From NCBI RefSeq assembly GCF_988242995.1, contig NZ_OZ547043.1: a stretch of 64,000 nt of DNA, one strand, 5' to 3'. Of this stretch, positions 18,320 through 32,867 are shown in pieces. Each line of letters begins with the position of its first letter. The stretch's first letter is position 1. The notes below the pieces were generated by a model, which worked only from the letters and a program-made list of their open reading frames with translations, did no database searches and was not told the origin of the DNA. Made by a program: the position numbers and the translations under genes.

Positions 18320-20881
18320 ATGAGTGCAATAGAAAATTTCGATGCCCATACGCCCATGATGCAGCAATATCTCAAGCTGAAAGCCCAGCATCCCGAGATC
18401 CTGCTGTTTTACCGGATGGGTGATTTTTATGAACTGTTTTATGACGACGCAAAACGCGCGTCGCAACTGCTGGATATTTCACTGACCAAACGCGGTGCTT
18501 CGGCGGGAGAGCCGATCCCGATGGCGGGGATCCCCTACCATGCGGTGGAAAACTACCTCGCCAAACTGGTGAATCAGGGCGAGTCCGTTGCCATCTGCGA
18601 ACAAATTGGCGATCCGGCGACCAGCAAAGGTCCAGTTGAGCGCAAAGTTGTGCGTATCGTTACGCCAGGCACCATCAGCGATGAAGCCCTGTTACAAGAG
18701 CGCCAGGACAATCTGCTGGCGGCTATCTGGCAGGACAGTAAAGGTTTCGGCTACGCGACGCTGGATATCAGTTCCGGTCGTTTTCGCCTGAGCGAACCGG
18801 CTGACCGGGAAACGATGGCGGCAGAACTGCAACGCACTAATCCGGCGGAACTGCTATATGCAGAAGATTTTGCTGAGATGTCGCTGATTGAAGGTCGTCG
18901 CGGTCTGCGCCGTCGTCCGCTGTGGGAGTTTGAAATCGACACCGCGCGCCAGCAGTTGAATCTGCAATTTGGCACCCGCGATCTGGTCGGTTTTGGCGTC
19001 GAGAACGCGCCGCGCGGACTTTGTGCTGCCGGTTGTCTGTTGCAGTATGCGAAAGATACCCAACGTACGACTCTGCCGCATATTCGTTCTATCACTATGG
19101 AACGTGAGCAGGACAGCATCATTATGGATGCCGCGACGCGTCGTAACCTGGAAATTACCCAGAACCTGGCGGGCGGTGCGGAAAACACGCTGGCTTCAGT
19201 GCTCGACTGCACTGTAACGCCGATGGGTAGTCGTATGCTGAAACGCTGGCTGCATATGCCAGTGCGCGATACCCGCGTGTTGCTTGAGCGCCAGCAAACT
19301 ATTGGCGCATTGCAGGATTTCACCGCCGAGCTACAGCCGGTGCTGCGTCAGGTCGGCGACCTGGAACGTATTCTGGCGCGTCTGGCTTTACGAACTGCTC
19401 GCCCACGCGATCTGGCCCGTATGCGTCACGCTTTCCAGCAACTGCCGGAGCTGCGTGCGCAGTTAGAAAATGTCGATAGCGCTCCGGTACAGGCGCTACG
19501 TGAAAAAATGGGCGAGTTTGCCGAGCTGCGCGATCTGCTGGAGCGGGCAATCATCGACACACCGCCAGTGCTGGTACGCGACGGTGGTGTTATCGCATCG
19601 GGCTATAACGAAGAGCTGGATGAGTGGCGCGCGCTGGCTGACGGCGCGACCGATTATCTGGAGCGTCTGGAAGTCCGCGAGCGTGAACGTACTGGCCTGG
19701 ACACGCTGAAAGTCGGCTTTAACGCGGTTCATGGTTATTACATTCAGATCAGCCGTGGACAAAGCCATCTGGCACCCATCAACTACATGCGTCGCCAGAC
19801 GCTGAAAAACGCCGAGCGCTACATCATTCCAGAGCTAAAAGAGTACGAAGATAAAGTTCTCACCTCAAAAGGCAAAGCACTGGCACTGGAAAAACAACTT
19901 TATGAAGAGCTGTTCGACCTGCTGTTGCCGCATCTGGAAGCGTTGCAACAGAGCGCGAGCGCGCTGGCGGAACTTGATGTGCTGGTTAACCTGGCGGAAC
20001 GGGCCTATACCCTGAACTACACCTGCCCGACCTTCATTGATAAACCGGGTATTCGCATCACCGAAGGTCGCCATCCGGTGGTTGAACAGGTACTGAACGA
20101 GCCATTTATCGCCAACCCGCTGAACCTGTCGCCGCAGCGTCGCATGTTGATCATTACCGGTCCGAATATGGGCGGTAAAAGTACCTATATGCGCCAGACC
20201 GCACTGATTGCGCTGATGGCCTACATCGGCAGCTATGTACCGGCACAAAAAGTCGAGATTGGACCTATCGACCGTATCTTCACCCGCGTAGGGGCAGCGG
20301 ATGATCTGGCATCCGGGCGTTCAACCTTTATGGTGGAGATGACCGAAACCGCCAATATTCTGCATAACGCCACCGAGTACAGTCTGGTGCTGATGGATGA
20401 GATTGGGCGCGGGACGTCCACTTACGATGGTCTGTCGCTGGCGTGGGCGTGCGCGGAAAATCTGGCGAATAAGATTAAAGCGTTGACGTTGTTTGCCACC
20501 CACTATTTCGAGCTGACCCAGTTACCGGAGAAAATGGAAGGCGTCGCCAACGTGCATCTCGATGCACTGGAGCACGGCGACACCATTGCCTTTATGCACA
20601 GCGTGCAGGATGGCGCGGCGAGCAAAAGCTACGGCCTGGCGGTTGCAGCTCTGGCGGGCGTGCCAAAAGAGGTTATTAAGCGCGCACGGCAAAAACTGCG
20701 TGAGCTGGAAAGCATTTCGCCGAACGCCGCCGCGACACAGGTCGATGGCACGCAGATGTCGCTGCTTTCAGTGCCGGAAGAAACCTCGCCAGCGGTCGAA
20801 GCACTGGAAAATCTCGACCCGGATTCACTGACTCCGCGTCAGGCGCTGGAATGGATTTATCGCTTGAAGAGTCTGGTGTAA
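18320..20881 (+). CDS. mutS: DNA mismatch repair protein MutS
   Basis: 853-aa ORF; [25 protein letters not shown]...; Walker [10 protein letters not shown]. Confidence 0.97.
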
Positions 20882-20886
20882 TAACA

Positions 20887-20915
20887 ATTCCCGATAGTCT
20901 TTTGCTATCGGGAAT
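20887..20915 (+). terminator. Possible mutS terminator hairpin
   Basis: ATTCCCGATAG-N7-CTATCGGGAAT inverted repeat directly after the mutS stop; weak U-tract. Confidence 0.35.
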
Positions 20916-20986
20916 ATTAACGACAACTGACGAATCAAATAAAAACACCCTGTATAATAGGAAATCTTATTTTACAGGGTAAAACC

Positions 20987-21643
20987 ATGCCATCTACACG
21001 CTATCAAAAAATTAATGCCCATCACTATCGTTATATATGGGCCGTTGGTGATATTCATGGTGACTATCAATTATTACAATCCCGCTTACATCAACTCTCT
21101 TTTTGCCCTGAAACCGACTTACTTATTTCTGTCGGCGATAATATTGATCGTGGGCCGGAGAGTCTTAACGTGCTGCGCCTGCTAAACCAGCCCTGGTTTA
21201 CATCGGTTAAAGGCAACCATGAAGCGATGGCGCTTGATGCATTCGAAACTGGCGATGGAAATATGTGGCTTGCCAGCGGCGGCGACTGGTTCTTTGAATT
21301 AAATGAGACGGAACAACAAGAAGCAATAAATCTGTTGCTGAAATTTCATCGCCTTCCACATATTATTGAAATCACTAACGACATAATAAAATATGTCATC
21401 GCACATGCAGATTATCCAGGGAATGAATATCTCTTTGGCAAAGAAATAGCGGAGAGAGAACTACTCTGGCCTGTTGATCGTGTGCAGAAATCGCTTAATG
21501 GCGAGTTACAACAAATAAACGGCGCTGATTATTTTATATTTGGACATATGATGTTTGATAACATTCAGACGTTCGCAAACCAGATTTATATTGATACCGG
21601 ATCGCCGAAAAGCGGGCGGCTGTCATTTTATAAAATAAAGTAG
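20987..21643 (+). CDS. pphB: Serine/threonine protein phosphatase 2
   Basis: 218-aa ORF with GDIHG and GDNIDRG metallophosphatase motifs. Confidence 0.92.
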   Translation: MPSTRYQKINAHHYRYIWAVGDIHGDYQLLQSRLHQLSFCPETDLLISVGDNIDRGPESLNVLRLLNQPWFTSVKGNHEAMALDAFETGDGNMWLASGGDWFFELNETEQQEAINLLLKFHRLPHIIEITNDIIKYVIAHADYPGNEYLFGKEIAERELLWPVDRVQKSLNGELQQINGADYFIFGHMMFDNIQTFANQIYIDTGSPKSGRLSFYKIK

Positions 21644-21693
21644 TCTCATGCTTCTTCTGTGAAGCATGAGTAACCCGGTGTTATTGCAGGCCA

Positions 21694-22461
21694 TTATTCA
21701 TTTTTCGCTACCAGCAAAAAGAGATCCTGCTTCGCCAGCGCGCGACTGGCACTCTCCGGCAAACCGTCGTCTGTAATAATCTGATCAAACTCGCTTAATG
21801 GTAACGCCAGCCATGTCGCCACCTGACCATATTTCGTCGCATCACAGACCAAAACTCGCTGGCGGCTGGCACTGGCAATCGCCCGTTTCACCGTGACTTT
21901 ATCTTCCGCTGGCGTAGAAATCCCCCGCACACTCCATGACGATGCAGAAATAAAAGCCTGATCAATCATCAGGCTGCGCAGCATGGTCGCAGCGGCTTCC
22001 CCGACACAGGAACGGTTTTCCCGACACACTGCACCGCCAGTGTGAATAATTGTGCAATTACTGTTGTCGAGCAAGTAGTCCGCAATAACGAAATCGTTTG
22101 TGACCACAGTCAGTGACTCCATGTGAATCAGATGCTGTGCTATCGCTAGCGTGGTCGTTCCCGCATCCAGATAGATACAACTTCCCGGCTGAACAAGACT
22201 TGCCGCCAGCTTGCCAATAGCCGCTTTTTGCGTCATTGCCAGCGCAGTTTTTACCTGATGAGAAGGTTCATGCGCCACGCGTCCCGGAGACTGGACGCCT
22301 CCGGACACCAGCACAACAGCTCCCTGCTGCTCCAGTTTTTGTAAATCCCGACGAATGGTCATATGTGACACATTCATTCTGTCCGTTAGTTCAGCAATAC
22401 TGACAATGCCTTTTTCAGCTACCATCTCAAGGATGATTTGGCGACGCTCTACGGGTATCAA
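21694..22461 (-). CDS. ygbI: DeoR-family transcriptional regulator
   Basis: ORF 21694..22491; N-terminal HTH; likely TTG start at 22461 giving 255 aa. Confidence 0.85.
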   Translation of the reverse strand: MIPVERRQIILEMVAEKGIVSIAELTDRMNVSHMTIRRDLQKLEQQGAVVLVSGGVQSPGRVAHEPSHQVKTALAMTQKAAIGKLAASLVQPGSCIYLDAGTTTLAIAQHLIHMESLTVVTNDFVIADYLLDNSNCTIIHTGGAVCRENRSCVGEAAATMLRSLMIDQAFISASSWSVRGISTPAEDKVTVKRAIASASRQRVLVCDATKYGQVATWLALPLSEFDQIITDDGLPESASRALAKQDLFLLVAKNE

Positions 22462-22656
22462 CTTTTGCTCCTTCCTTTGTCCTGCTGACATTCTACGCTA
22501 TTTGCCTGCGAAACGTGCGCGGCGCAACTAACACTTAGTTCACATAAAATAACACACAATGTTAATTTATGTGAATCAGCTCACCATATCGTTATCTTCC
22601 AGCGCTTATATTCACAATATCAAACAAAATATCACTTAAATTAACAAGGAGAGCAG

Positions 22657-23565
22657 ATGAAAACGGGATCTGAGTTTCATGTCGGTATCGTTGGCTTAGG
22701 GTCAATGGGAATGGGAGCAGCACTGTCATGTGTCCGCGCAGGTCTTTCTACCTGGGGCGCAGACCTGAACAGCAATGCCTGCGCTACGTTGAAAGAGGCA
22801 GGTGCTTGCGGGGTTTCTGATAACGCCGCGACGTTTGCCGAAAAACTGGACGCTCTGCTGGTGCTGGTGGTCAATGCGGCCCAGGTTAAACAGGTGCTGT
22901 TTGGTGAAACAGGCGTTGCACAACATCTGAAACCCGGTACGGCAGTAATGGTTTCTTCCACTATCGCTAGTGCTGATGCGCAAGAAATTGCTACCGCTCT
23001 GGCTGGATTCGATCTGGAAATGCTGGATGCGCCAGTTTCTGGTGGTGCAGTAAAAGCCGCTAACGGTGAAATGACTGTCATGGCCTCCGGTAGCAATATT
23101 GCCTTTGAACGACTGGCACCCGTGCTGGAAGCCGTTGCCGGAAAAGTTTATCGCATAGGTGCAGAACCGGGACTAGGTTCGACCGTAAAAATTATTCACC
23201 AGTTGTTAGCGGGCGTACATATTGCTGCCGGAGCCGAAGCGATGGCACTTGCAGCCCGTGCGGGGATCCCGCTGGATGTGATGTATGACGTCGTGACCAA
23301 TGCCGCCGGAAATTCCTGGATGTTCGAAAACCGGATGCGTCATGTGGTGGATGGCGATTACACCCCGCATTCAGCCGTCGATATTTTTGTTAAGGATCTT
23401 GGTCTGGTTGCCGATACAGCCAAAGCCCTGCACTTCCCGCTGCCATTGGCCTCAACAGCATTGAATATGTTCACCAGCGCCAGTAACGCGGGTTACGGGA
23501 AAGAAGACGATAGCGCAGTTATCAAGATTTTCTCTGGCATCACTCTACCGGGAGCGAAATCATGA
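22657..23565 (+). CDS. ygbJ: NAD-dependent L-threonate dehydrogenase (3-hydroxyisobutyrate dehydrogenase family)
   Basis: 302-aa ORF; N-terminal Rossmann GxGxxG (IVGLGSMG). Confidence 0.88.
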   Translation: MKTGSEFHVGIVGLGSMGMGAALSCVRAGLSTWGADLNSNACATLKEAGACGVSDNAATFAEKLDALLVLVVNAAQVKQVLFGETGVAQHLKPGTAVMVSSTIASADAQEIATALAGFDLEMLDAPVSGGAVKAANGEMTVMASGSNIAFERLAPVLEAVAGKVYRIGAEPGLGSTVKIIHQLLAGVHIAAGAEAMALAARAGIPLDVMYDVVTNAAGNSWMFENRMRHVVDGDYTPHSAVDIFVKDLGLVADTAKALHFPLPLASTALNMFTSASNAGYGKEDDSAVIKIFSGITLPGAKS

Positions 23566-24824
23566 TCAAGATTGGCGTTATCGCCGATGATTTTACCGGC
23601 GCGACGGATATCGCCAGTTTTCTGGTGGAAAACGGTCTACCAACGGTACAAATTAACGGTGTTCCAACAGGTAAAATGCCGGAAGCAATCGACGCACTGG
23701 TGATCAGCCTGAAAACGCGTTCCTGTCCGGTTGTTGAAGCCACACAGCAATCGCTGGCGGCTCTGAGCTGGTTGCAACAGCAAGGTTGCAAACAGATCTA
23801 TTTCAAATACTGCTCTACTTTCGACAGTACGGCGAAAGGTAATATCGGCCCGGTTACCGATGCATTAATGGATGCTCTCGACACGCCGTTTACGGTCTTC
23901 TCTCCGGCCCTGCCGGTCAACGGACGTACGGTTTATCAGGGGTATTTGTTCGTAATGAATCAACTGCTGGCCGAATCTGGGATGCGCCATCACCCGGTAA
24001 ATCCCATGACCGACAGCTATCTTCCCCGTCTGGTTGAAGCGCAATCCACAGGGCGCTGCGGCGTCGTTTCGGCACATGTTTTCGAACAAGGTGTGGATGC
24101 CGTTCGTCAAGAGCTGGCTCGCTTACAGCAAGAGGGCTACCGCTACGCGGTGCTTGATGCGCTGACCGAACACCATCTGGAAATTCAGGGAGAAGCCTTG
24201 CGCGATGCCCCACTGGTAACGGGCGGTTCTGGTCTGGCGATTGGCCTTGCCCGGCAGTGGGCGCAAGAAAACGGTAACCAGGCTCGCAAAGCAGGGCATC
24301 CGCTCGCTGGGCGCGGCGTAGTGCTCTCCGGTTCATGCTCTCAAATGACCAACCGCCAGGTAGCACATTACCGTCAAATTGCACCAGCCCGTGAAGTTGA
24401 TGTGGCACGCTGCCTCTCAATTGAAACTCTGGCCGCTTATGCACACGAACTGGCAGAGTGGGTTCTGGGCCAGGAAAGTGTACTTGCTCCACTGGTTTTT
24501 GCCACCGCCAGCACTGACGCATTGGCAGCAATTCAACAGCAATACGGTGCACAAAAAGCCAGTCAGGCAGTAGAAACACTGTTTTCTCAACTAGCGGCGC
24601 GGTTAGCAGCGGAAGGCGTGACACGCTTTATTGTCGCAGGCGGTGAGACCTCCGGCGTAGTCACACAGAGCCTGGGAATAAAAGGGTTTCATATTGGCCC
24701 AACCATTTCTCCCGGCGTGCCGTGGGTAAACGCACTGGATAAACCTGTCTCACTCGCCCTTAAATCTGGCAACTTCGGTGATGAAGCCTTTTTTTCACGA
24801 GCCCAAAGAGAGTTTTTATCATGA
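23562..24824 (+). CDS. ygbK: 3-oxo-tetronate kinase (four-carbon acid sugar kinase family)
   Basis: 420-aa ORF overlapping ygbJ stop by 4 bp; synteny. Confidence 0.85.
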   Translation: MIKIGVIADDFTGATDIASFLVENGLPTVQINGVPTGKMPEAIDALVISLKTRSCPVVEATQQSLAALSWLQQQGCKQIYFKYCSTFDSTAKGNIGPVTDALMDALDTPFTVFSPALPVNGRTVYQGYLFVMNQLLAESGMRHHPVNPMTDSYLPRLVEAQSTGRCGVVSAHVFEQGVDAVRQELARLQQEGYRYAVLDALTEHHLEIQGEALRDAPLVTGGSGLAIGLARQWAQENGNQARKAGHPLAGRGVVLSGSCSQMTNRQVAHYRQIAPAREVDVARCLSIETLAAYAHELAEWVLGQESVLAPLVFATASTDALAAIQQQYGAQKASQAVETLFSQLAARLAAEGVTRFIVAGGETSGVVTQSLGIKGFHIGPTISPGVPWVNALDKPVSLALKSGNFGDEAFFSRAQREFLS

Positions 24825-25459
24825 GCGATTTCGCAAAAGTAGAGCCGTCTTTGCGAGAGGAGATGACGCGGATTGCCAGTTCATTCTTTCAGCGCGGCTA
24901 TGCAACCGGTTCGGCTGGCAATCTGTCGCTGCTTTTACCTGACGGGAATTTACTGGCGACACCGACAGGTTCATGCCTGGGCAATCTCGATCCGCAGCGG
25001 CTTTCCAAAGTCGCCGCGGATGGCGAATGGTTAAGTGGTGACAAACCCTCGAAAGAGGTGCTCTTTCATCTGGCGCTGTATCGCAACAATCCGCGCTGTA
25101 AAGCGGTGGTGCATTTGCACAGCACATGGTCGACGGCGCTTTCCTGCCTGCAAGGGCTGGACAGCAGCAACGTTATTCGTCCGTTCACACCATACGTGGT
25201 GATGCGGATGGGAAATATCCCGCTGGTGCCTTATTACCGACCGGGCGATAAACGCATCGCACAGGATCTGGCGGAACTGGCAGCAGACAATCAGGCTTTT
25301 TTACTGGCAAATCATGGCCCAGTGGTTTGCGGTGAAAGCCTGCAAGAAGCCGCCAACAATATGGAAGAGCTGGAGGAAACGGCAAAGCTGATTTTTATTC
25401 TCGGTGATCGCCCGATCCGTTATCTGACCGCAGGTGAAATTGCGGAATTAAGGAGTTAA
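24821..25459 (+). CDS. ygbL: 3-oxo-tetronate 4-phosphate decarboxylase (class II aldolase/adducin family)
   Basis: 212-aa ORF; synteny. Confidence 0.85.
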
Positions 25460-25463
25460 TGCA

Positions 25464-26240
25464 ATGCCTCGTTTTGCAGCTAATTTATCCATGATGTTCA
25501 CCGAAGTGCCTTTTATTGAACGCTTCGCCGCAGCGCGAAAAGCCGGGTTCGATGCTGTGGAATTTCTGTTTCCCTATGACTACTCCACCCTGCAAATCCA
25601 AAAGCAACTGGAGCAAAACCATCTGACACTGGCGCTGTTCAATACCGCTCCCGGAGATATTAATGCGGGGGAATGGGGATTATCCGCCCTTCCCGGACGT
25701 GAGCACGAAGCACACGCAGACATCGACCTGGCACTGGAATATGCATTGGCGCTCAATTGTGAACAAGTCCATGTGATGGCAGGCGTCGTGCCCGCTGGCG
25801 AAGATGCTGAACGGTACAGGGCAGTATTTATCGATAATCTCCGCTACGCTGCCGACCGCTTTGCGCCACACGGCAAGCGAATATTAGTTGAAGCACTCAG
25901 CCCCGGCGTTAAGCCTCATTATCTCTTCTCCAGCCAGTATCAGGCACTGGCTATTGTTGAAGAAGTTGCGCGAGATAACGTGTTTATTCAACTAGATACT
26001 TTTCATGCGCAAAAAGTAGATGGCAACCTGACGCATTTAATCCGCGACTACGCCGGGAAATATGCGCACGTACAAATTGCCGGACTACCTGATCGACATG
26101 AACCGGACGATGGAGAAATCAACTATCCGTGGCTGTTCCGTCTGTTCGATGAGGTGGGATATCAGGGCTGGATCGGTTGTGAATATAAACCTCGTGGCCT
26201 CACCGAAGAAGGGCTTGGCTGGTTTGACGCCTGGCGCTAA
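25464..26240 (+). CDS. ygbM: 2-oxo-tetronate isomerase (hydroxypyruvate isomerase-like TIM barrel)
   Basis: 258-aa ORF; synteny. Confidence 0.85.
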
Positions 26241-26328
26241 TTCGTTAAATCCCTAATTACAACGTACCCATACATCCCCCCATCTACGGATGGGGTAGGT
26301 TAACTATAACTTTCAGACAGGGTTTCCC

Positions 26329-27693
26329 ATGTCCACAATTACATTGTTATGCATTGCGTTAACTGGCGTAATCATGCTGTTGCTGCTGGTCATCAAGGCA
26401 AAGGTACAACCATTCGTTGCTCTGCTCCTCGTCAGCCTGTTAGTCGCACTTGCGGCGGGTATACCGGCGGGCGAAGTGGGTAAAGTGATGATCGCCGGGA
26501 TGGGCGGTGTGCTTGGTTCCGTCACTATTATTATTGGTCTGGGCGCTATGCTGGGGCGTATGATCGAACACTCTGGTGGTGCAGAGTCACTGGCTAATTA
26601 TTTCAGTCGCAAGTTAGGTGACAAACGAACTATCGCTGCGCTGACTCTGGCAGCGTTCTTCCTCGGTATTCCCGTCTTCTTTGATGTCGGCTTTATTATT
26701 CTTGCGCCAATCATTTACGGTTTTGCCAAGGTTGCCAAAATATCGCCACTCAAATTTGGCCTGCCTGTCGCTGGAATCATGCTAACTGTTCATGTGGCGG
26801 TACCGCCGCATCCAGGCCCTGTCGCCGCAGCGGGGTTACTCCACGCAGACATCGGCTGGCTAACCATCATCGGTATTGCGATTTCTATTCCCGTAGGGAT
26901 TGTTGGCTACTTTGCAGCGAAAATAATCAATAAGCGCCAATATGCGATGTCGGTGGAAGTACTGGAACAGATGCAACTGGCTCCGGCCAGTGAGGAAGGC
27001 GCGACAAAATTAAGCGATAAAATAAATCCACCGGGCGTCGCGCTGGTCACCTCGCTAATTGTTATTCCTATCGCGATTATCATGGCGGGTACGGTTTCCG
27101 CAACACTGATGCCGCCTTCGCATCCCCTGCTTGGTACGCTACAGCTGATCGGCTCACCAATGGTAGCTCTAATGATTGCGCTGGTACTGGCATTCTGGTT
27201 ATTGGCTTTACGTCGCGGCTGGAGCTTACAACACACCAGCGACATTATGGGCTCAGCCCTTCCCACTGCGGCGGTAGTGATTTTGGTTACTGGTGCTGGA
27301 GGGGTATTTGGCAAAGTGCTGGTGGAATCGGGCGTCGGCAAAGCCCTTGCCAACATGCTACAAATGATTGACCTGCCTCTGTTACCAGCCGCATTTATTA
27401 TTTCACTGGCGCTGCGTGCATCGCAGGGGTCAGCAACCGTAGCAATCCTGACAACCGGCGGGTTACTCTCAGAAGCGGTGATGGGATTGAATCCGATTCA
27501 GTGCGTATTGGTGACGCTGGCAGCCTGCTTTGGTGGGCTTGGCGCGTCACATATTAATGACTCAGGGTTCTGGATTGTGACCAAATATCTGGGGTTGTCG
27601 GTAGCAGACGGTCTGAAAACCTGGACAGTGTTAACGACCATTCTCGGTTTTACCGGATTCTTAATTACCTGGTGCGTATGGGCGGTAATTTGA
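26329..27693 (+). CDS. ygbN: GntP-family permease
   Basis: 454-aa polytopic membrane ORF; synteny. Confidence 0.87.
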   Translation: MSTITLLCIALTGVIMLLLLVIKAKVQPFVALLLVSLLVALAAGIPAGEVGKVMIAGMGGVLGSVTIIIGLGAMLGRMIEHSGGAESLANYFSRKLGDKRTIAALTLAAFFLGIPVFFDVGFIILAPIIYGFAKVAKISPLKFGLPVAGIMLTVHVAVPPHPGPVAAAGLLHADIGWLTIIGIAISIPVGIVGYFAAKIINKRQYAMSVEVLEQMQLAPASEEGATKLSDKINPPGVALVTSLIVIPIAIIMAGTVSATLMPPSHPLLGTLQLIGSPMVALMIALVLAFWLLALRRGWSLQHTSDIMGSALPTAAVVILVTGAGGVFGKVLVESGVGKALANMLQMIDLPLLPAAFIISLALRASQGSATVAILTTGGLLSEAVMGLNPIQCVLVTLAACFGGLGASHINDSGFWIVTKYLGLSVADGLKTWTVLTTILGFTGFLITWCVWAVI

Positions 27694-27700
27694 CCTTAAT

Positions 27701-27733
27701 AAAAAGGTCCGATGGGCATCGGACCTTTTATTT
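27701..27733. terminator. Bidirectional rho-independent terminator between ygbN and the convergent decarboxylase operon
   Basis: AAAAAGGTCCGATG-GG-CATCGGACCTTTTATTT: 10-bp perfect stem flanked by A-run and T-run. Confidence 0.7.
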
Positions 27734-27968
27734 AGCGCTTACCTTCCGCCAGCAGCGGCGGGATGCTCGGCACCATCGGCGCGTCATCAATATCTTTCTG
27801 CGTCATGCGGAACGCTTCGGGATAATGTTCGCGGCTAGTGCGGCGTAGCGGTTCGGTATCGCGCCAGGTATAAAGGCAATGCTGGCACTGGTAGACCGTC
27901 CAGACATCTTTCACCGGCGATTTCGCCATCACTTCAATCTGTTCATCGGCACAACGTGGACAAATCAT
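27732..27968 (-). CDS. ecdD: Small subunit of UbiD-type aromatic acid decarboxylase (BsdD/EcdD-like)
   Basis: 78-aa ORF with CPRC...CQHC zinc-ribbon-like motif; downstream of UbiD homolog. Confidence 0.7.
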   Translation of the reverse strand: MICPRCADEQIEVMAKSPVKDVWTVYQCQHCLYTWRDTEPLRRTSREHYPEAFRMTQKDIDDAPMVPSIPPLLAEGKR

Positions 27969-27978
27969 CTTGTTCTCC

Positions 27979-29406
27979 TTATTTACGTGCGGCCAGCATA
28001 GCAGTCAGTTTTTCAGCCCAGGCTTTGGTTTCCGGTAAATCCACCACCGGCTGGCTGTAGTGACCACGGTTGTCCGGGGCGACAGGCGTGGTGGCGTCGA
28101 TAATCAGCTTGTCGGTGATCCCCGCCGGGCTTGAGCCAGGGTCGAGTTCCAGCACGGACATATTTGGCAACTGCACCAGGTCGCCTGCCGGGTTCACTTT
28201 CGAGGAGAGCGCCCACATCACCTGCGGCAGGTTGAACGGATCAACGTCTTCATCGACCATAATCACCATCTTCACGTAGCCCAGACCGTGCGGCGTGGTC
28301 ATTGCACGCAGGCCCACCGCGCGGGCAAAGCCGCCGTAGCGTTTTTTGGTGGAGATAATCGCCAACAGGCCGTGGGTGTACATGGCGTTTACCGCCTGCA
28401 CTTCCGGGAACTCGGCTTTCAGTTGCTGATACAGCGGCACGCAGGTGGCAGGCCCCATCAGGTAGTCGATTTCGGTCCACGGCATACCAAGATAGAGCGA
28501 TTCGAAAATCGGTTTGGTACGGTAAGAGACTTTATCGATACGCACCACGGTCATGTTACGCCCGCCGGAGTAGTGACCGGTAAACTCACCGAACGGCCCT
28601 TCAATCTCACGTTTACGACTTTCGATAACCCCTTCGAGGATCACTTCCGAGCCCCACGGCACATCAAAACCGGTCAGCGGGGCGGTGGCGATCGGGTACG
28701 GGCTTTCGCGCAGCGCGCCCGCCATTTCGTACTCAGACTGATCGTATTTCAGCGGCGTGGCGCCCATCAGGATGATGATCGGATCGTTACCTAGGGTGAT
28801 GGCAATCGGCAGATCTTCACCGCGTTCTTCCGCTTTATGCAGATGCAGAGCGATATCGTGCATCGGCACCGGTTGCAGGCCGAGCTTACGTTTGCCCTTC
28901 ACTTCCATACGATAGATACCGACGTTCTGCTTGCCGAAGTTATCCGGGTCGAGCGGATCGCGGGAAACCACGCACGCTTTGTCGAGATAGAAACCGCCAT
29001 CGCCATCGTTTAAACGAAACAGCGGCAGGATATCGAACAGGTTGATCTCGTCGCCATCGACGGTGTTCTGCGCCCAGGCTGGATTGGCGCGGCGCTCCGG
29101 GGCAATCGGGAAGTTATCCCAGCGGCGGATAAACTCATCAATCTGCTTTTTGACCGGGGTGTTTGGCGGCAGGCCGAGGGAAATCGCGTGGTTCTGCCAG
29201 GAACCGATGGCATTCATCGCCACACGGGCATCGGTAAAGCCGCGAATATTGTCAAACCACAGCGCGGGCGCGCCGTCGCCGATACGCCCGGTGGCGTTAG
29301 CTGCTGCTGCCAGATCCGGTTCCGCGTTCACCTCTTCGCTGATTTTCAGTAACTGGCCGTGGTCATCAAGCGCCTGTAAAAAGCTGCGTAAATCATCAAA
29401 TGCCAT
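27979..29406 (-). CDS. ecdC: UbiD-family (prFMN-dependent) aromatic acid decarboxylase
   Basis: 475-aa ORF with UbiD-like length and translation; operon context with UbiX homolog. Confidence 0.8.
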   Translation of the reverse strand: MAFDDLRSFLQALDDHGQLLKISEEVNAEPDLAAAANATGRIGDGAPALWFDNIRGFTDARVAMNAIGSWQNHAISLGLPPNTPVKKQIDEFIRRWDNFPIAPERRANPAWAQNTVDGDEINLFDILPLFRLNDGDGGFYLDKACVVSRDPLDPDNFGKQNVGIYRMEVKGKRKLGLQPVPMHDIALHLHKAEERGEDLPIAITLGNDPIIILMGATPLKYDQSEYEMAGALRESPYPIATAPLTGFDVPWGSEVILEGVIESRKREIEGPFGEFTGHYSGGRNMTVVRIDKVSYRTKPIFESLYLGMPWTEIDYLMGPATCVPLYQQLKAEFPEVQAVNAMYTHGLLAIISTKKRYGGFARAVGLRAMTTPHGLGYVKMVIMVDEDVDPFNLPQVMWALSSKVNPAGDLVQLPNMSVLELDPGSSPAGITDKLIIDATTPVAPDNRGHYSQPVVDLPETKAWAEKLTAMLAARK

Positions 29407-29999
29407 TATTCATTCTCCTGAGAAAAATTCCGGACCTGCGGCAATCCTTGCCAGCGCCTGGCGTGGGGATGTTCGAGGCCAAATTGATCCAGCACGCGGG
29501 CTACCACGTGGTGGACAATGTCATCTACCGTTTCGGGATGGTTATAAAAGGCAGGCATCGGCGGCACCATCGCCACGCCCATGCGTGAAAGTGCGAGCAT
29601 ATTTTCGAGATGGATGGTGCTAAGCGGCATTTCACGCGGCACCAGCACTAGTTTGCGGCCTTCTTTGAGCACGACGTCCGCCGCGCGCCCTACCAGGCCA
29701 TCGGCGTAACCGACACGGATACCGGCGAGCGTTTTCATACTGCACGGAATAACGATCATGCCGTCGGTACGAAAGGAACCTGAGGAGATGGTCGCCGCCT
29801 GATCCGCCGGGTTATGACTGAAGTCTGCGAGGGCAGCAACATCGCGAGCGCTGTAAGGCGTTTCCAGTTCAATGGTGGTTTTCGCCCACTTCGACATCAC
29901 CAGATGAGTCTCGACATTCGGCATCTCCCGCAGCGCTTGCAGTAATGCCACCCCAAGAGGCGCACCGGTAGCCCCTGTCATCCCGACGATCAGTCTCAT
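29406..29999 (-). CDS. ecdB: UbiX/Pad1-family flavin prenyltransferase
   Basis: 197-aa ORF MRLIVGMTGATGAPLGVALLQAL... typical of UbiX/Pad1. Confidence 0.82.
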   Translation of the reverse strand: MRLIVGMTGATGAPLGVALLQALREMPNVETHLVMSKWAKTTIELETPYSARDVAALADFSHNPADQAATISSGSFRTDGMIVIPCSMKTLAGIRVGYADGLVGRAADVVLKEGRKLVLVPREMPLSTIHLENMLALSRMGVAMVPPMPAFYNHPETVDDIVHHVVARVLDQFGLEHPHARRWQGLPQVRNFSQENE

Positions 30000-30016
30000 T
30001 GTTTATTCTCTTAATT

Positions 30017-30030
30017 GTTCGTATACGAAC
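30017..30030. promoter_or_regulatory. Perfect 14-bp palindrome GTTCGTATACGAAC in divergent promoter region; candidate MarR-family operator
   Basis: Read directly; lies between ecdB start (29999) and the MarR-like gene start. Confidence 0.4.
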
Positions 30031-30107
30031 GTTATTATTAAAATACGCCTCTGTTTTCATCGCGGCAAGCACTGAAAAGTAACAACATCTTCTTCGTCAC
30101 TGAAAAA

Positions 30108-30122
30108 CCGCTATGATAGCGG
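30108..30122. promoter_or_regulatory. Inverted repeat CCGCTAT-G-ATAGCGG; second candidate operator
   Basis: 7-bp perfect arms around one central base, about 25 bp upstream of the MarR-like start. Confidence 0.3.
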
Positions 30123-30145
30123 CAGATAGTTTGCCCGGAGTTTAC

Positions 30146-30553
30146 ATGGCGTTACGAAATAAAGCGTTCCATCAGTTACGACAGCTTTTTCAGCAGCACA
30201 CGGCTCGCTGGCAGCACGAGTTACCTGACCTCACCAAACCACAGTACGCGGTGATGCGCGCCATTGCTGATAAGCCTGGTATCGAACAGGTGGCACTGAT
30301 AGAAGCAGCAGTCAGCACCAAAGCAACGCTGGCAGAAATGTTGGCAAGAATGGAAAATCGTGGCTTAGTCAGACGTGAACATGACGCCGCTGACAAGCGG
30401 CGTCGCTTTGTCTGGCTGACTGCCGAAGGAGAAAAGGTACTTGCTGCGGCGATCCCCATTGGTGACAGTGTGGATGAGGAATTTTTGGGGCGTTTGAGTG
30501 CAGAAGAGAAGGAGCTGTTTATGCAGTTGGTGCGCAAGATGATGAGCAAATAG
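30146..30553 (+). CDS. MarR/SlyA-family transcriptional regulator
   Basis: ORF 30113..30553; start taken at ATG 30146 behind GGAG; winged-helix region; divergent from decarboxylase operon. Confidence 0.75.
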   Translation: MALRNKAFHQLRQLFQQHTARWQHELPDLTKPQYAVMRAIADKPGIEQVALIEAAVSTKATLAEMLARMENRGLVRREHDAADKRRRFVWLTAEGEKVLAAAIPIGDSVDEEFLGRLSAEEKELFMQLVRKMMSK

Positions 30554-30620
30554 GATGCTGATTGCCGGGTAGGACGCTGACGAGTCTTATCCAGGCGACA
30601 AAACACACCGACTTCCCAAA

Positions 30621-30657
30621 CAAAAGAAAAAGGCCAGCCTCGCTTGAGACTGGCCTT
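30621..30657 (-). terminator. rpoS rho-independent terminator
   Basis: Minus strand AAGGCCAG-loop-CTGGCCTT followed by TTTTTCTTTTGTTT, directly downstream of rpoS stop. Confidence 0.6.
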
Positions 30658-30673
30658 TCTGACAGATGCTTAC

Positions 30674-31665
30674 TTACTCGCGGAACAGCGCTTCGATATT
30701 CAGCCCCTGCGTTTGCAGGATTTCGCGCAAACGGCGCAGGCCTTCAACCTGAATCTGGCGAACACGTTCACGGGTGAGGCCAATTTCACGACCTACATCT
30801 TCCAGTGTTGCCGCTTCGTACCCCAGCAAACCGAATCGACGTGCCAGTACTTCACGCTGTTTGGCGTTCAGCTCGAACAGCCATTTGACGATGCTCTGCT
30901 TCATATCGTCATCTTGCGTGGTATCTTCCGGACCGTTCTCTTTTTCATCGGCCAGGATGTCCAGCAACGCTTTTTCGGAATCACCACCCAGCGGGGTGTC
31001 TACCGAGGTAATGCGCTCGTTAAGACGAAGCATACGGCTGACGTCATCAACTGGCTTATCCAGTTGCTCTGCGATCTCTTCCGCACTTGGTTCGTGGTCC
31101 AGTTTATGGGACAACTCGCGTGCGGTTCGCAGGTAAACGTTCAGCTCCTTTACGATGTGAATCGGCAAACGAATAGTACGGGTTTGGTTCATAATCGCCC
31201 GTTCGATCGTCTGGCGAATCCACCAGGTTGCGTATGTTGAGAAGCGGAAACCACGTTCCGGGTCAAACTTCTCTACCGCGCGGATCAGCCCCAGGTTGCC
31301 CTCTTCGATCAGGTCCAGCAACGCCAGACCACGATTGCCATAACGGCGGGCAATTTTTACCACCAGACGCAAGTTACTCTCGATCATCCGGCGGCGGGAG
31401 GCAACATCTCCACGCAGTGCGCGACGCGCAAAATAAACTTCTTCTTCGGCCGTTAACAGTGGTGAATAACAATCTCACCAAGGTAAAGCTGAGTCGCGTC
31501 CAACACACGCTGTGTGGCTCCCTGCGATAACAGTTCCTCTTCGGCCAAATCGTTATCACTGGGTTCCTCTTCTACTAAGGCCTTTTCGTCAAAAACCTCA
31601 ACTCCGTTCTCATCAAATTCCGCATCTTCATTTAAATCATGAACTTTCAGCGTATTCTGACTCAT
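30674..31665 (-). pseudogene. rpoS: RNA polymerase sigma factor RpoS (sigma-S), disrupted by a -1 frameshift
   Basis: N-terminal [17 protein letters not shown]...LYLGEI reads in ORF 31453..31701 and stops after IVIHHC; the rest ([10 protein letters not shown]...ALFRE) is ORF 30674..31387 in another frame; span is 992 nt, not a multiple of 3. Confidence 0.8.
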
Positions 31666-31727
31666 AAGGTGGCTCCTACCCGTGATCCCTTGACGGAACA
31701 TTCAAGCAAAAGCCTGGTTCCGCCGAT

Positions 31728-32867
31728 TTATCGCTGCGGCAAATAACGCAGCGGGTTTACGGATTTCCCCTTGTAACGAATTTCAAAATGCAAGCGTGTT
31801 GAACTGGTTCCGGTGCTACCCATGGTTGCTATTTTTTGCCCCGCCTTCACTTCTTGTTGTTCCCGGACCAGCATTGTGTCGTTATGGGCGTAGGCACTCA
31901 GGTAATCATCATTATGTTTGATGATAATCAGATTACCGTAGCCGCGCAGCGCGTTACCGGCATAAACAACGCGGCCATCTGCGGTCGCGATAATTGCCTG
32001 TCCTTTGCTGCCTGCGATATCAATCCCCTTGTTGCCCCCCTCAGAAGCGCCAAAGGTTTCGATCACTTTGCCCTCAGTCGGCCAGCGCCAGGTGGAGATA
32101 GGCGTACTGGTTGATGTACTGCTGACAGTCGGCTCGGTTGTGCTTGCTGTTGGTACCGTTACAGGCGCTGTGACCGTGGTCGCAGTTGGCTTGTTGTTCG
32201 GCAACATTTTGTTAGCACTCTGTTCACCCGAAGACTCAGAATACGTAATTGTCGGTTGCGAAGCAACAGCAACGGTGGAATTTTGTGCAGGCTTGATCAC
32301 AACTCCTTGCTCTGCTGCATCGGCCTGGGTAATGGCATTTCCGCCAGTGATTGGCGTACCGGAAGCATTACCCACCTGTAAGGTCTGACCGACGTTCAGC
32401 GCGTATGGTGCCTGAATATTGTTGCGCTGAGCAAGGTCACGGAAATCGTTGCCAGTAATCCAGGCGATATAGAAAAGTGTGTCGCCTTTTTTCACGGTAT
32501 AGGTACTGCCGCTATAACTGCCTTTCGGAATGTTCCCATACTGACGGTTGTAGACGATGCGTCCGTTTTCCATCTGTACCGGCTGCTGAGCTACTGGCTG
32601 CACCGGCTGGATTTGCGGTTGTTGAGTTGCCTGAATTTGTGGCTGCTGTACCGGCTGAATTTGCGGTTGCTGAGCTGTAGACGTCGTCCCCATTTTCGGC
32701 GGCGGCGTAATCAACATACCAGAATTGGTATTTGCAGGCGCATTGCCATTAACGGAGCTGACCGGGGCCGGTGGATTTGAAGTGTCAGAACAGCCTGCCA
32801 GCCATAGCGAAACCAGTGACAAAGCCGCAATGCGGCGAACGGTGAATTTTGGGCTTCCCGCGCTCAT
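31728..32867 (-). CDS. nlpD: Murein hydrolase activator lipoprotein NlpD (LysM + LytM domains)
   Basis: 379-aa ORF with lipobox LAGC and Q/P-rich repeat region. Confidence 0.95.
32606..32677. repeat. Three imperfect ~24-bp tandem repeats inside nlpD encoding QQPQIQ(P/A)V repeats
   Basis: Repeated CTGAATTTGCGGTTGCTGAG-like units read from sequence. Confidence 0.6.

Follow-up and report, generated by a model that had tools for sequence, protein, structure and literature searches.

Gene content and flanks of the ygb cluster

Positions 21694 to 27693 of the window (the whole 64,000-nucleotide stretch of DNA analysed) run from the stop codon of ygbI to that of ygbN and hold six genes: one minus-strand gene for a DeoR-family regulator and, divergent from it, five plus-strand genes. 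One flank consists of mutS and pphB and the other of vdc/ecdDCB, a MarR-family gene and rpoS, with hairpins just beyond both ends of the cluster:

21645..21670: candidate terminator hairpin, a terminator-like site where pphB and ygbI converge (-18.7 kcal/mol, z = -3.7)
21694..22461, minus strand: ygbI, DeoR-family repressor, 255 aa, start codon TTG at 22461-22459
22657..23565, plus strand: ltnD (ygbJ), L-threonate 2-dehydrogenase, 302 aa (NF043037, 473 bits against a cut-off of 350)
23562..24824, plus strand: otnK (ygbK), 3-oxo-tetronate kinase of the DUF1537 family, 420 aa, intact (NF043035, 599 bits against a cut-off of 350)
24821..25459, plus strand: otnC (ygbL), decarboxylase of class II aldolase fold (NF043034, 333 bits against a cut-off of 250)
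25464..26240, plus strand: otnI (ygbM), 2-oxo-tetronate isomerase, a xylose isomerase-like TIM barrel, 258 aa (NF043033, 396 bits against a cut-off of 325)
26329..27693, plus strand: ygbN, GntP-family permease, 454 aa (NF007332, 828 bits against a cut-off of 524)
27702..27729: hairpin, its 12-bp stem bordered by runs of A and T, in the gap where ygbN and the decarboxylase D subunit gene converge

All six proteins match their own NCBIfam equivalog models end to end, with scores above the curated cut-offs, and the Pfam architectures concur. The 6-kb cluster is also 95-99.8% identical to the annotated ygbI-ygbN loci of 4576 complete E. coli genomes, and these near-identical loci, together with the full-length family matches, mark the cluster as real coding sequence rather than a product of chance. 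An earlier note, made from the letters of the window, had described a minus-strand DeoR-family regulator divergent from genes for a dehydrogenase, a kinase, a class II aldolase-like decarboxylase, an isomerase and a GntP permease; ORF positions, NCBIfam and Pfam agree with that description, and in the homology check that it called for, which asked whether the ORFs belonged to unrelated families, all six were placed in the expected families above the equivalog cut-offs. An Rfam scan of positions 20000-32000 found no known RNA family.

The domains and motifs of the individual proteins fit these assignments. YgbI combines an N-terminal HTH_DeoR domain (PF08220) with a C-terminal DeoRC sensor domain (PF00455). 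LtnD has the beta-hydroxyacid dehydrogenase fold (the NAD_binding_2 domain together with NAD_binding_11), with the Rossmann GxGxxG motif present as GLGSMG at residue 13 and the catalytic-lysine motif GSTVK at 174. OtnK, which aligns to positions 1-417 of the 418 in NF043035, consists of SBD_N (PF07005) and NBD_C (PF17042) domains, carries the N-terminal DDxTG motif as DDFTG at residue 9 and the C-terminal SGNFG at 402, and scores far under the cut-offs of the D-threonate kinase and OiaK models. OtnC is an Aldolase_II protein with HLH at residue 98 and NHG at 164, the histidines of which we take to be equivalent to the metal-binding zinc ligands of FucA in the class II aldolase fold; against the FucA models themselves it reaches just 82-104 bits, where the cut-offs are 250-400. 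OtnI belongs to AP_endonuc_2 (PF01261). For each of the four enzymes there is a solved structure that is close or near-identical: 3G0O is the closest to LtnD (E=9e-149), 3DQQ and 1YZY match OtnK, 6VOP matches OtnC (E=1e-138) and 1K77, named 'hypothetical protein YgbM', matches OtnI (E=1e-178). YgbN is a GntP_permease (PF02447, 515 bits) over its full length, and its substrate would be the four-carbon sugar acid that the operon breaks down. A further NCBIfam model, NF007441, outscores NF043033 on OtnI; it represents the same protein family under a mistaken name.

The plus-strand genes are closely packed. ATGA overlaps of 4 nt each join ltnD to otnK and otnK to otnC, and otnC and otnI are 4 nt apart, which suggests that these four genes form a single translationally coupled transcript. 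The hairpin at 21645..21670 is likely a terminator, and that at 27702..27729 (-17.1 kcal/mol, z = -5.3, with none of 200 shuffles equally stable) is likely a bidirectional one. Another hairpin, in the 88-nt spacer between otnI and ygbN, was rejected as a terminator, its stability being no better than that of shuffled sequences (z = -0.7).

Translation start of ygbI and the divergent intergenic region

A 195-bp intergenic region separates ygbI from ltnD, and three features are associated with it and with the start of ygbI:

22468..22477, minus strand: Shine-Dalgarno sequence AAGGAAGGAG, read off the sequence, 6 nt upstream of the ygbI TTG
22539..22575: candidate YgbI operator, an inverted repeat whose 16-nt arms are separated by 5 nt (TTCACATAAAATAACA / TGTTAATTTATGTGAA)
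22632..22646, plus strand: third candidate operator half-site TCACTTAAATTAACA, in direct and inverted repeat with the others and abutting the ltnD ribosome-binding site

The mechanical ORF of ygbI spans 21694..22491 on the minus strand and encodes 265 aa from its first ATG, at 22491, raising the alternative that translation begins there. No start codon of the ORF comes earlier than that ATG, and every E. coli copy examined has it in frame, but it is not preceded by a Shine-Dalgarno sequence; AAGGAAGGAG instead falls before the TTG, within the putative extension, and its GGAG core is unchanged in Salmonella and in the Citrobacter-type copy. The match to NF040890 (481 bits, cut-off 400) covers model positions 1-253 of 253 and spans residues 11 to 263 of the 265-aa product, and the PGAP annotation of ygbI is 768 nt long in strains MEW, F11 and K-12. 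In Salmonella, an in-frame TAA lies 18 nt before the TTG and there is no other start; in the Citrobacter-type gene the upstream ATG, 31 nt away, is out of frame; and the Mannheimia homologue has an ATG at the codon aligned to the TTG, its protein beginning M-IPIERQQ. The 265-aa form thus merits almost no credence, and the ATG at 22491 is very probably unused. The TTG start, which the earlier note had considered probable, is well supported by comparison of sequences, through the Shine-Dalgarno sequence, PGAP, NCBIfam and three other genera. A 'ygbI' found beside blaSHV-12 on plasmids was rejected as an orthologue for this comparison, given its 57% identity and different context.

The palindrome at 22539..22575 is retained in Salmonella, the Citrobacter-type copy, E. 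albertii and Mannheimia, with changes between genera that are symmetric across its arms. When representative genomes of 100,044 species were searched for it, four of the six matches lay between ygbI and ltnD; the remaining two, in Prochlorococcus and Staphylococcus shinii, had no ygb genes nearby and were treated as chance. The half-site motif occurs three times in the 64 kb of the window, where 0.38 copies would be expected, always in the ygbI-ltnD intergenic region, and the third half-site is retained in Salmonella and the Citrobacter-type copy. The palindrome overlaps a promoter-like site for ygbI (22575..22546, minus strand) from a consensus scan in which shuffled sequence gave at least as many sites and the ltnD promoter was not located. 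Published work in K-12 bears on the same region: ChIP-exo identified one YgbI site, between ygbI and ygbJ, and deletion of ygbI de-repressed ygbJKLMN (PMC8464067), while ygbI mutations arising in laboratory evolution raised ygbJKLMN expression (PMC6452873). The YgbI operator is therefore likely to comprise the 16-5-16 palindrome together with the third half-site, beside the ribosome-binding site of ltnD; this provides a concrete candidate operator sequence for YgbI binding work. YgbI, translated from the TTG, would repress both the operon and its own gene through this operator.

Proposed pathway, distribution and alternative readings

As summarised in PMC12540250 and PMC12994016, both of which cite Zhang et al. 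2016, the L-threonate pathway has four steps, catalysed by LtnD, OtnI, OtnK and OtnC and ending in dihydroxyacetone phosphate (DHAP); these enzyme steps were demonstrated by experiment in other bacteria. The corresponding steps are assigned to the window's proteins at the level of equivalog families. On this basis, YgbN would import the acid as a proton symporter; LtnD would oxidise C2 of L-threonate with NAD(P)+ to give 2-oxo-tetronate; OtnI would isomerise this to 3-oxo-tetronate; OtnK would phosphorylate the latter at C4 with ATP; and OtnC would decarboxylate the OtnK product to DHAP and CO2. Expression of ygbN may be a continuation of the ltnD-otnI transcript across the 88-nt spacer, which lacks a significant terminator. 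A literature search, in which Zhang et al. 2016 was represented by the papers citing it, found no report of E. coli growth on L-threonate or direct assay of an E. coli enzyme.

The earlier note had assigned the cluster to an L-threonate/D-erythronate pathway. Genes for the common trunk of the pathway and for entry from L-threonate are indeed present, but the D-erythronate entry enzyme is missing from the cluster: the spacer between otnI and ygbN contains no gene for denD (D-erythronate 2-dehydrogenase, NF043036), and Salmonella denD DNA has no match, at the sensitivity of blastn, in 5426 complete E. coli genomes. As denD is absent, only the L-threonate entry step is encoded and use of D-erythronate is not expected.

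The note had also placed the cluster in the mutS-rpoS variable region and held it to be absent from some E. coli. Both statements are borne out. The cluster lies between mutS-pphB and rpoS, a region for which patterns I-IV have been described in E. coli (Ewers et al. 2014, PMC4209514), and the window has the long 'pattern IV', consisting of mutS, pphB, the ygb cluster, hydroxyarylic acid decarboxylase BCD, a MarR-family gene and rpoS; at least 80% of an 11.9-kb query for this long form is shared by 1588 of the 5426 complete genomes. The ygb cluster itself is present with at least 80% query coverage in 4576 of these genomes and has no match in 824, with pphB directly abutting the gene for the hydroxyarylic acid decarboxylase D subunit in 806, as in O157:H7. 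Outside E. coli, Salmonella, E. albertii and Citrobacter-type plasmids also carry the ygb gene set beside ygbI, and the Mannheimia locus includes a divergent ltnD-ygbI pair.

Two alternative accounts of function were weighed. The enzymes may be as annotated while their physiological substrate is another C4 acid, for example tartrate or a compound derived from it, such that L-threonate would be only a family-level label. The K-12 ygbI-mutant phenotypes reported involve L-tartrate and meso-tartrate and not L-threonate, with deletion of ygbI permitting growth on L-tartrate (PMC8464067) and ygbI mutations having arisen in both meso-tartrate evolution lines (PMC6452873), and the E. coli cluster lacks denD and has a GntP permease unlike that of Salmonella. 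However, all four enzymes exceed the L-threonate-pathway equivalog cut-offs and share 79-86% identity with their Salmonella counterparts; the tartrate study's own authors favour a likely promiscuous activity (PMC6452873); and growth on tartrate requires removal of the repressor, which indicates that tartrate is not an inducer. A tartrate-type physiological substrate consequently appears improbable. It is more improbable still that the cluster is a cryptic, decaying remnant with no remaining function in E. coli. Its absence from 824 genomes, its partial removal by IS1 in strain TUM9757, the otnK frameshift of the K-12 lineage and its tight repression in K-12 (PMC8464067) would all fit such decay, but at least 80% of it is retained at 95-99.8% identity in 4576 genomes, the six ORFs of the window are full-length relative to their models, gene order, operator and start codon are kept in other genera, and the K-12 frameshift allele is present in only 370 of 4580 genomes, which among the matches listed are mostly laboratory strains.

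The preferred reading, held with considerable confidence, is thus that 21694..27693 is the ygbI / ltnD-otnK-otnC-otnI-ygbN locus of E. coli, in which a repressor controls an operon that converts L-threonate to DHAP. A broader conjecture, which we regard as unlikely, would be that the E. coli-type cluster, without denD and with its distinct permease YgbN, has diverged toward another C4 acid (tartrate, for example), and that a YgbI oligomer bound to the three half-sites covers the ribosome-binding site of ltnD as well as the two divergent promoters. The cluster in the window is an intact, ordinary copy of the already described E. coli L-threonate operon; the locus, the pathway, the repressor and the patchy E. 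coli distribution are all published, and the relevance of the present analysis beyond correct annotation is small.

Comparison with known systems

The same enzyme families and reaction order make up the pathway of Zhang et al. 2016, as far as the papers citing that work relate it; its D-erythronate branch needs DenD, which the window's cluster lacks. The mutS-rpoS patterns of Ewers et al. 2014 correspond to the present counts, all four forms having been recovered with no substantive difference.

In Salmonella enterica, the cluster encodes the same four enzymes and a YgbI that is 86% identical, and has in common with the window the divergent arrangement, the palindrome, the ygbI TTG start and the mutS-rpoS neighbourhood. 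Its order, ygbI / ltnD-otnK-otnC-otnI-denD-permease, differs in the additional denD (the S. diarizonae DenD scores 449 bits against NF043036), and its GntP-family permease, at 498 aa and 31-34% identity to YgbN, is not orthologous. The Salmonella module is also inverted relative to mutS, unlike that of the window.

The closest parallel compared here is K-12, where ygbI-ygbJKLMN (b2735-b2740) occupies the same locus in the same order and orientation, the proteins other than OtnK are 98.6-99.6% identical, and the intergenic region differs by 4 substitutions in 195 nt (98% identity), palindrome and third half-site being the same. K-12 lacks the decarboxylase/MarR module that follows ygbN in the window. 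It also lacks 1 nt, corresponding to base 24710 of the window, a deletion which shortens OtnK to 388 aa with loss of SGNFG, whereas otnK in the window is intact, and which opens a 91-nt gap before ygbL; a literature search for a described ygbK frameshift returned nothing relevant. The split into ygbJK and ygbLM operons in K-12-based resources rests on the gap made by this K-12-specific frameshift; the same lesion in otnK makes K-12 ill-suited to an L-threonate growth test.

Gene content and predicted function of the ygbI-ygbN cluster

ORF calling in the window placed the six ORFs of the ygbI-ygbN cluster exactly where the earlier note had positioned them, and each encodes a full-length match to an NCBIfam equivalog above its curated cut-off, in accordance with the families originally assigned. 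The cluster itself is confirmed, and the interpretation attached to it is supported with a caveat concerning denD; the essentials are already published.

Features of the cluster and its flanks
18320-20881: mutS, flank on the ygbI side
20987-21643: pphB, flank on the ygbI side
21694-22491, minus strand: ygbI (mechanical ORF); DeoR-family repressor YgbI model, 481 bits against a cut-off of 400
22657-23565, plus strand: ygbJ/ltnD; L-threonate dehydrogenase model, 473 bits against 350
23562-24824, plus strand: ygbK/otnK; 3-oxo-tetronate kinase model, 599 bits against 350
24821-25459, plus strand: ygbL/otnC; NCBIfam equivalog, 333 bits against 250
25464-26240, plus strand: ygbM/otnI; 2-oxo-tetronate isomerase model, 396 bits against 325
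26329-27693, plus strand: ygbN; GntP transporter model, 828 bits against 524
27732-29999, minus strand: hydroxyarylic-acid decarboxylase D, C and B subunit genes, flank on the ygbN side

Pfam searches found the architectures HTH_DeoR + DeoRC in YgbI, NAD_binding_2 + NAD_binding_11 in LtnD and SBD_N + NBD_C in OtnK, with single Aldolase_II, AP_endonuc_2 and GntP_permease domains in OtnC, OtnI and YgbN respectively. Diagnostic motifs are present in the cluster's proteins, and solved structures exist for the same or closely related proteins in the case of all four enzymes. The ltnD/otnK and otnK/otnC junctions are ATGA overlaps, while gaps of 4 nt and 88 nt separate otnC from otnI and otnI from ygbN. 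The ltnD-ygbN unit is closed by a strong hairpin flanked by A and T runs (27702-27729; z = -5.3 against shuffles), and a second lies between pphB and ygbI (z = -3.7). The family NF007441 (PRK09989), to which OtnI belongs, is named 'HPr family phosphocarrier protein', a label PGAP has spread to thousands of genomes; this is a misnomer, as the 258 aa product is a xylose-isomerase-like TIM barrel (PF01261, PDB 1K77) whose score clears the OtnI cut-off as well.

In the predicted pathway, LtnD would oxidise L-threonate to 2-oxo-tetronate, OtnI would isomerise this to 3-oxo-tetronate, OtnK would phosphorylate the latter to the 4-phosphate and OtnC would decarboxylate the product, yielding DHAP and CO2. 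These four steps follow the accounts in PMC12540250 and PMC12994016, each of which cites Zhang et al. 2016; the enzyme activities have been shown elsewhere, and for the window's cluster we infer them together with the permease substrate and the inducer. Another compound, such as tartrate, is a conceivable physiological substrate instead of L-threonate, given the phenotypes of K-12 ygbI mutants, but these require removal of the repressor, and the authors themselves call the activity promiscuous.

Start codon and candidate operator of ygbI

The first start codon of the ygbI ORF is an ATG (22491), 30 nt upstream of a TTG at 22461; a TTG start had been suggested. Inspection of the sequence 5' of the ATG revealed nothing resembling a ribosome-binding site; the Shine-Dalgarno sequence AAGGAAGGAG (22477-22468) lies 6 nt upstream of the TTG. 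PGAP annotates ygbI as 768 nt (255 aa) in every genome inspected, and the family model aligns only from residue 11 onwards when the long ORF is used. Translation from the ATG is made very unlikely by the frames and stops found in other genera: Salmonella ygbI has an in-frame TAA 18 nt upstream of the homologous TTG and no alternative start, and in the Citrobacter-type gene the upstream ATG, 31 nt away, is out of frame, with an in-frame TGA between. A Mannheimia homologue (53% identical) has ATG-ATT-CCT (M-I-P-I-E-R) at the aligned codon. Comparison therefore supports the TTG start, as far as sequence can settle it.

The ygbI-ltnD intergenic region contains a palindrome (22539-22575) of 16 nt arms and a 5 nt spacer, and a third half-site (22632-22646) adjoining the ltnD Shine-Dalgarno sequence. 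With up to two mismatches permitted, the 64 kb window has three copies of the half-site TCACWTAAAWTAACA, all within this intergenic region, against 0.38 expected. Both the palindrome and the third half-site are retained in the Salmonella and Citrobacter-type copies, the palindrome differing at symmetric positions of both arms. When a relaxed pattern was searched in 100,044 species, one genome each, four of the six matches fell between ygbI and ltnD: in E. albertii, S. diarizonae, Mannheimia and an E. coli-like contig in an Oscillospiraceae MAG. In K-12, ChIP-exo mapped YgbI binding to just one site, located between ygbI and ygbJ and overlapping RNA polymerase binding, and deletion of ygbI de-repressed ygbJKLMN (PMC8464067). 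The palindrome is a candidate YgbI operator that would agree with this site, and a promoter-like site within it fits reported ygbI autoregulation.

The other two matches are unrelated. The one in Staphylococcus shinii (L014 928-962) has arms TCACATAAAATAACA ... TGTTAATTTATGTGA identical to those in E. coli and sits a short distance 3' of a NUDIX/acetyltransferase-like gene; the 2.3 kb locus contains no ygb homologue, and the match is probably a chance occurrence in an AT-rich genome. The MAG contig (RKCM01000024.1, 9.3 kb), encoding YgbI 98.8% and LtnD 100% identical to the window's, belongs to E. coli and was wrongly binned with a Firmicutes MAG.

Distribution in E. coli and the K-12 otnK frameshift

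The cluster lies in the mutS-rpoS variable region, as the earlier note had claimed, with mutS and pphB on one side and, on the other, the decarboxylase genes, a divergent MarR-family gene and then rpoS: the long form, 'pattern IV' of PMC4209514. The 2.9 kb decarboxylase/MarR module 3' of ygbN (27732-30553) is absent from K-12 and kept in O157:H7. An 11.9 kb query from mutS to rpoS recovered all four published architectures: ygb with decarboxylase genes (1588 genomes), ygb alone (K-12 type), ygb with an MBL-fold hydrolase and flavodoxin (B2 type), and decarboxylase genes but no ygb (O157:H7 and others).

At least 80% of the 6 kb cluster is present in 4576 of 5426 complete E. coli genomes, at 95-99.8% identity. 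The anticipated absence from some E. coli is borne out by 824 genomes without any match, and in 806 genomes a junction probe found pphB and the decarboxylase D subunit gene directly adjacent. Because the cluster also occurs in this region in Salmonella, and in E. albertii (on a contig too short to show the flanks), its absence would most simply represent loss. That it is a decaying remnant is unlikely, since its genes are intact and full-length in about 84% of genomes and it is conserved across genera. Other losses are occasional: TUM9757 (L002 7248-8909) has an independent, IS-associated deletion in which an IS1A element takes the place of pphB, ygbI-ygbM and most of the region preceding the final 909 nt of ygbN, which alone are left. 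Two cluster-less genomes (L003 2345-2384, L004 3232-3272) have a 40 nt pphB-decarboxylase spacer with its own GC-rich hairpin, GCCGGGTA...TACCCGGC; simply fusing the window's flanks (21644-21693 and 27694-27731) would not yield this spacer, and such junctions differ between lineages by up to around 12%. In the B2 strain F11 (L005 1688-2343), pphB is annotated as frameshifted.

Alignment with K-12 MG1655 (L015 5070-5150) showed that this strain is missing a single T in otnK, corresponding to window position 24710. Its product ends ...ISPACRG* at 388 aa, without 36 conserved C-terminal residues, including SGNFG, that complete the window's intact 420 aa protein. This exact allele occurs in 370 of the 4580 genomes with the gene, all others having the extra base; among five listed examples, four are laboratory strains or derivatives of such strains. 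The frameshift opens a 91 nt gap 5' of ygbL, which explains why K-12-based resources split ygbJK from ygbLM, and likewise accounts for the transcript spanning ygbK-ygbL in an RNA-seq study (PMC4168707); no paper mentioning the frameshift was found. With otnK frameshifted, K-12 is the wrong strain for the proposed L-threonate growth test, and interpretation of tartrate phenotypes in its ygbI mutants is complicated.

Comparison with plasmid, paralogous and Salmonella copies

A complete Citrobacter-type ygbI-ltnD-otnK-otnC-otnI-GntP cluster is carried by a Citrobacter portucalensis plasmid (L008 3771-9795), and the type occurs in around 26 plasmid records from Citrobacter, Enterobacter, Klebsiella and E. 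coli. The proteins of this type share 81-92% identity with those of the window. The DeoR-family gene adjoining blaSHV-12 (L006 4001-4762; around 1100 records), often named 'ygbI' in the resistance-plasmid literature, is a paralogue, its product being only 57% identical to YgbI and its context different.

The Salmonella Senftenberg cluster (L007 2726-9765) occupies the same mutS-rpoS region as the window's, but is inverted; the record is labelled a 728 kb 'plasmid', yet contains mutS, rpoS and other chromosomal genes. The Salmonella operon has denD between otnI and the permease gene, a position at which the window has only 88 nt. With the DenD model, the S. diarizonae copy reaches 449 bits, and Salmonella denD DNA has no match in any complete E. 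coli genome. The window's cluster therefore encodes only the common trunk and the step by which L-threonate enters it: of the L-threonate/D-erythronate pathway originally proposed, these parts stand and the D-erythronate entry does not. The enzymes are 79-86% identical between the two systems, whereas YgbN is only 31-34% identical to the Salmonella transporter, in Senftenberg a non-orthologous 498 aa GntP-family permease.
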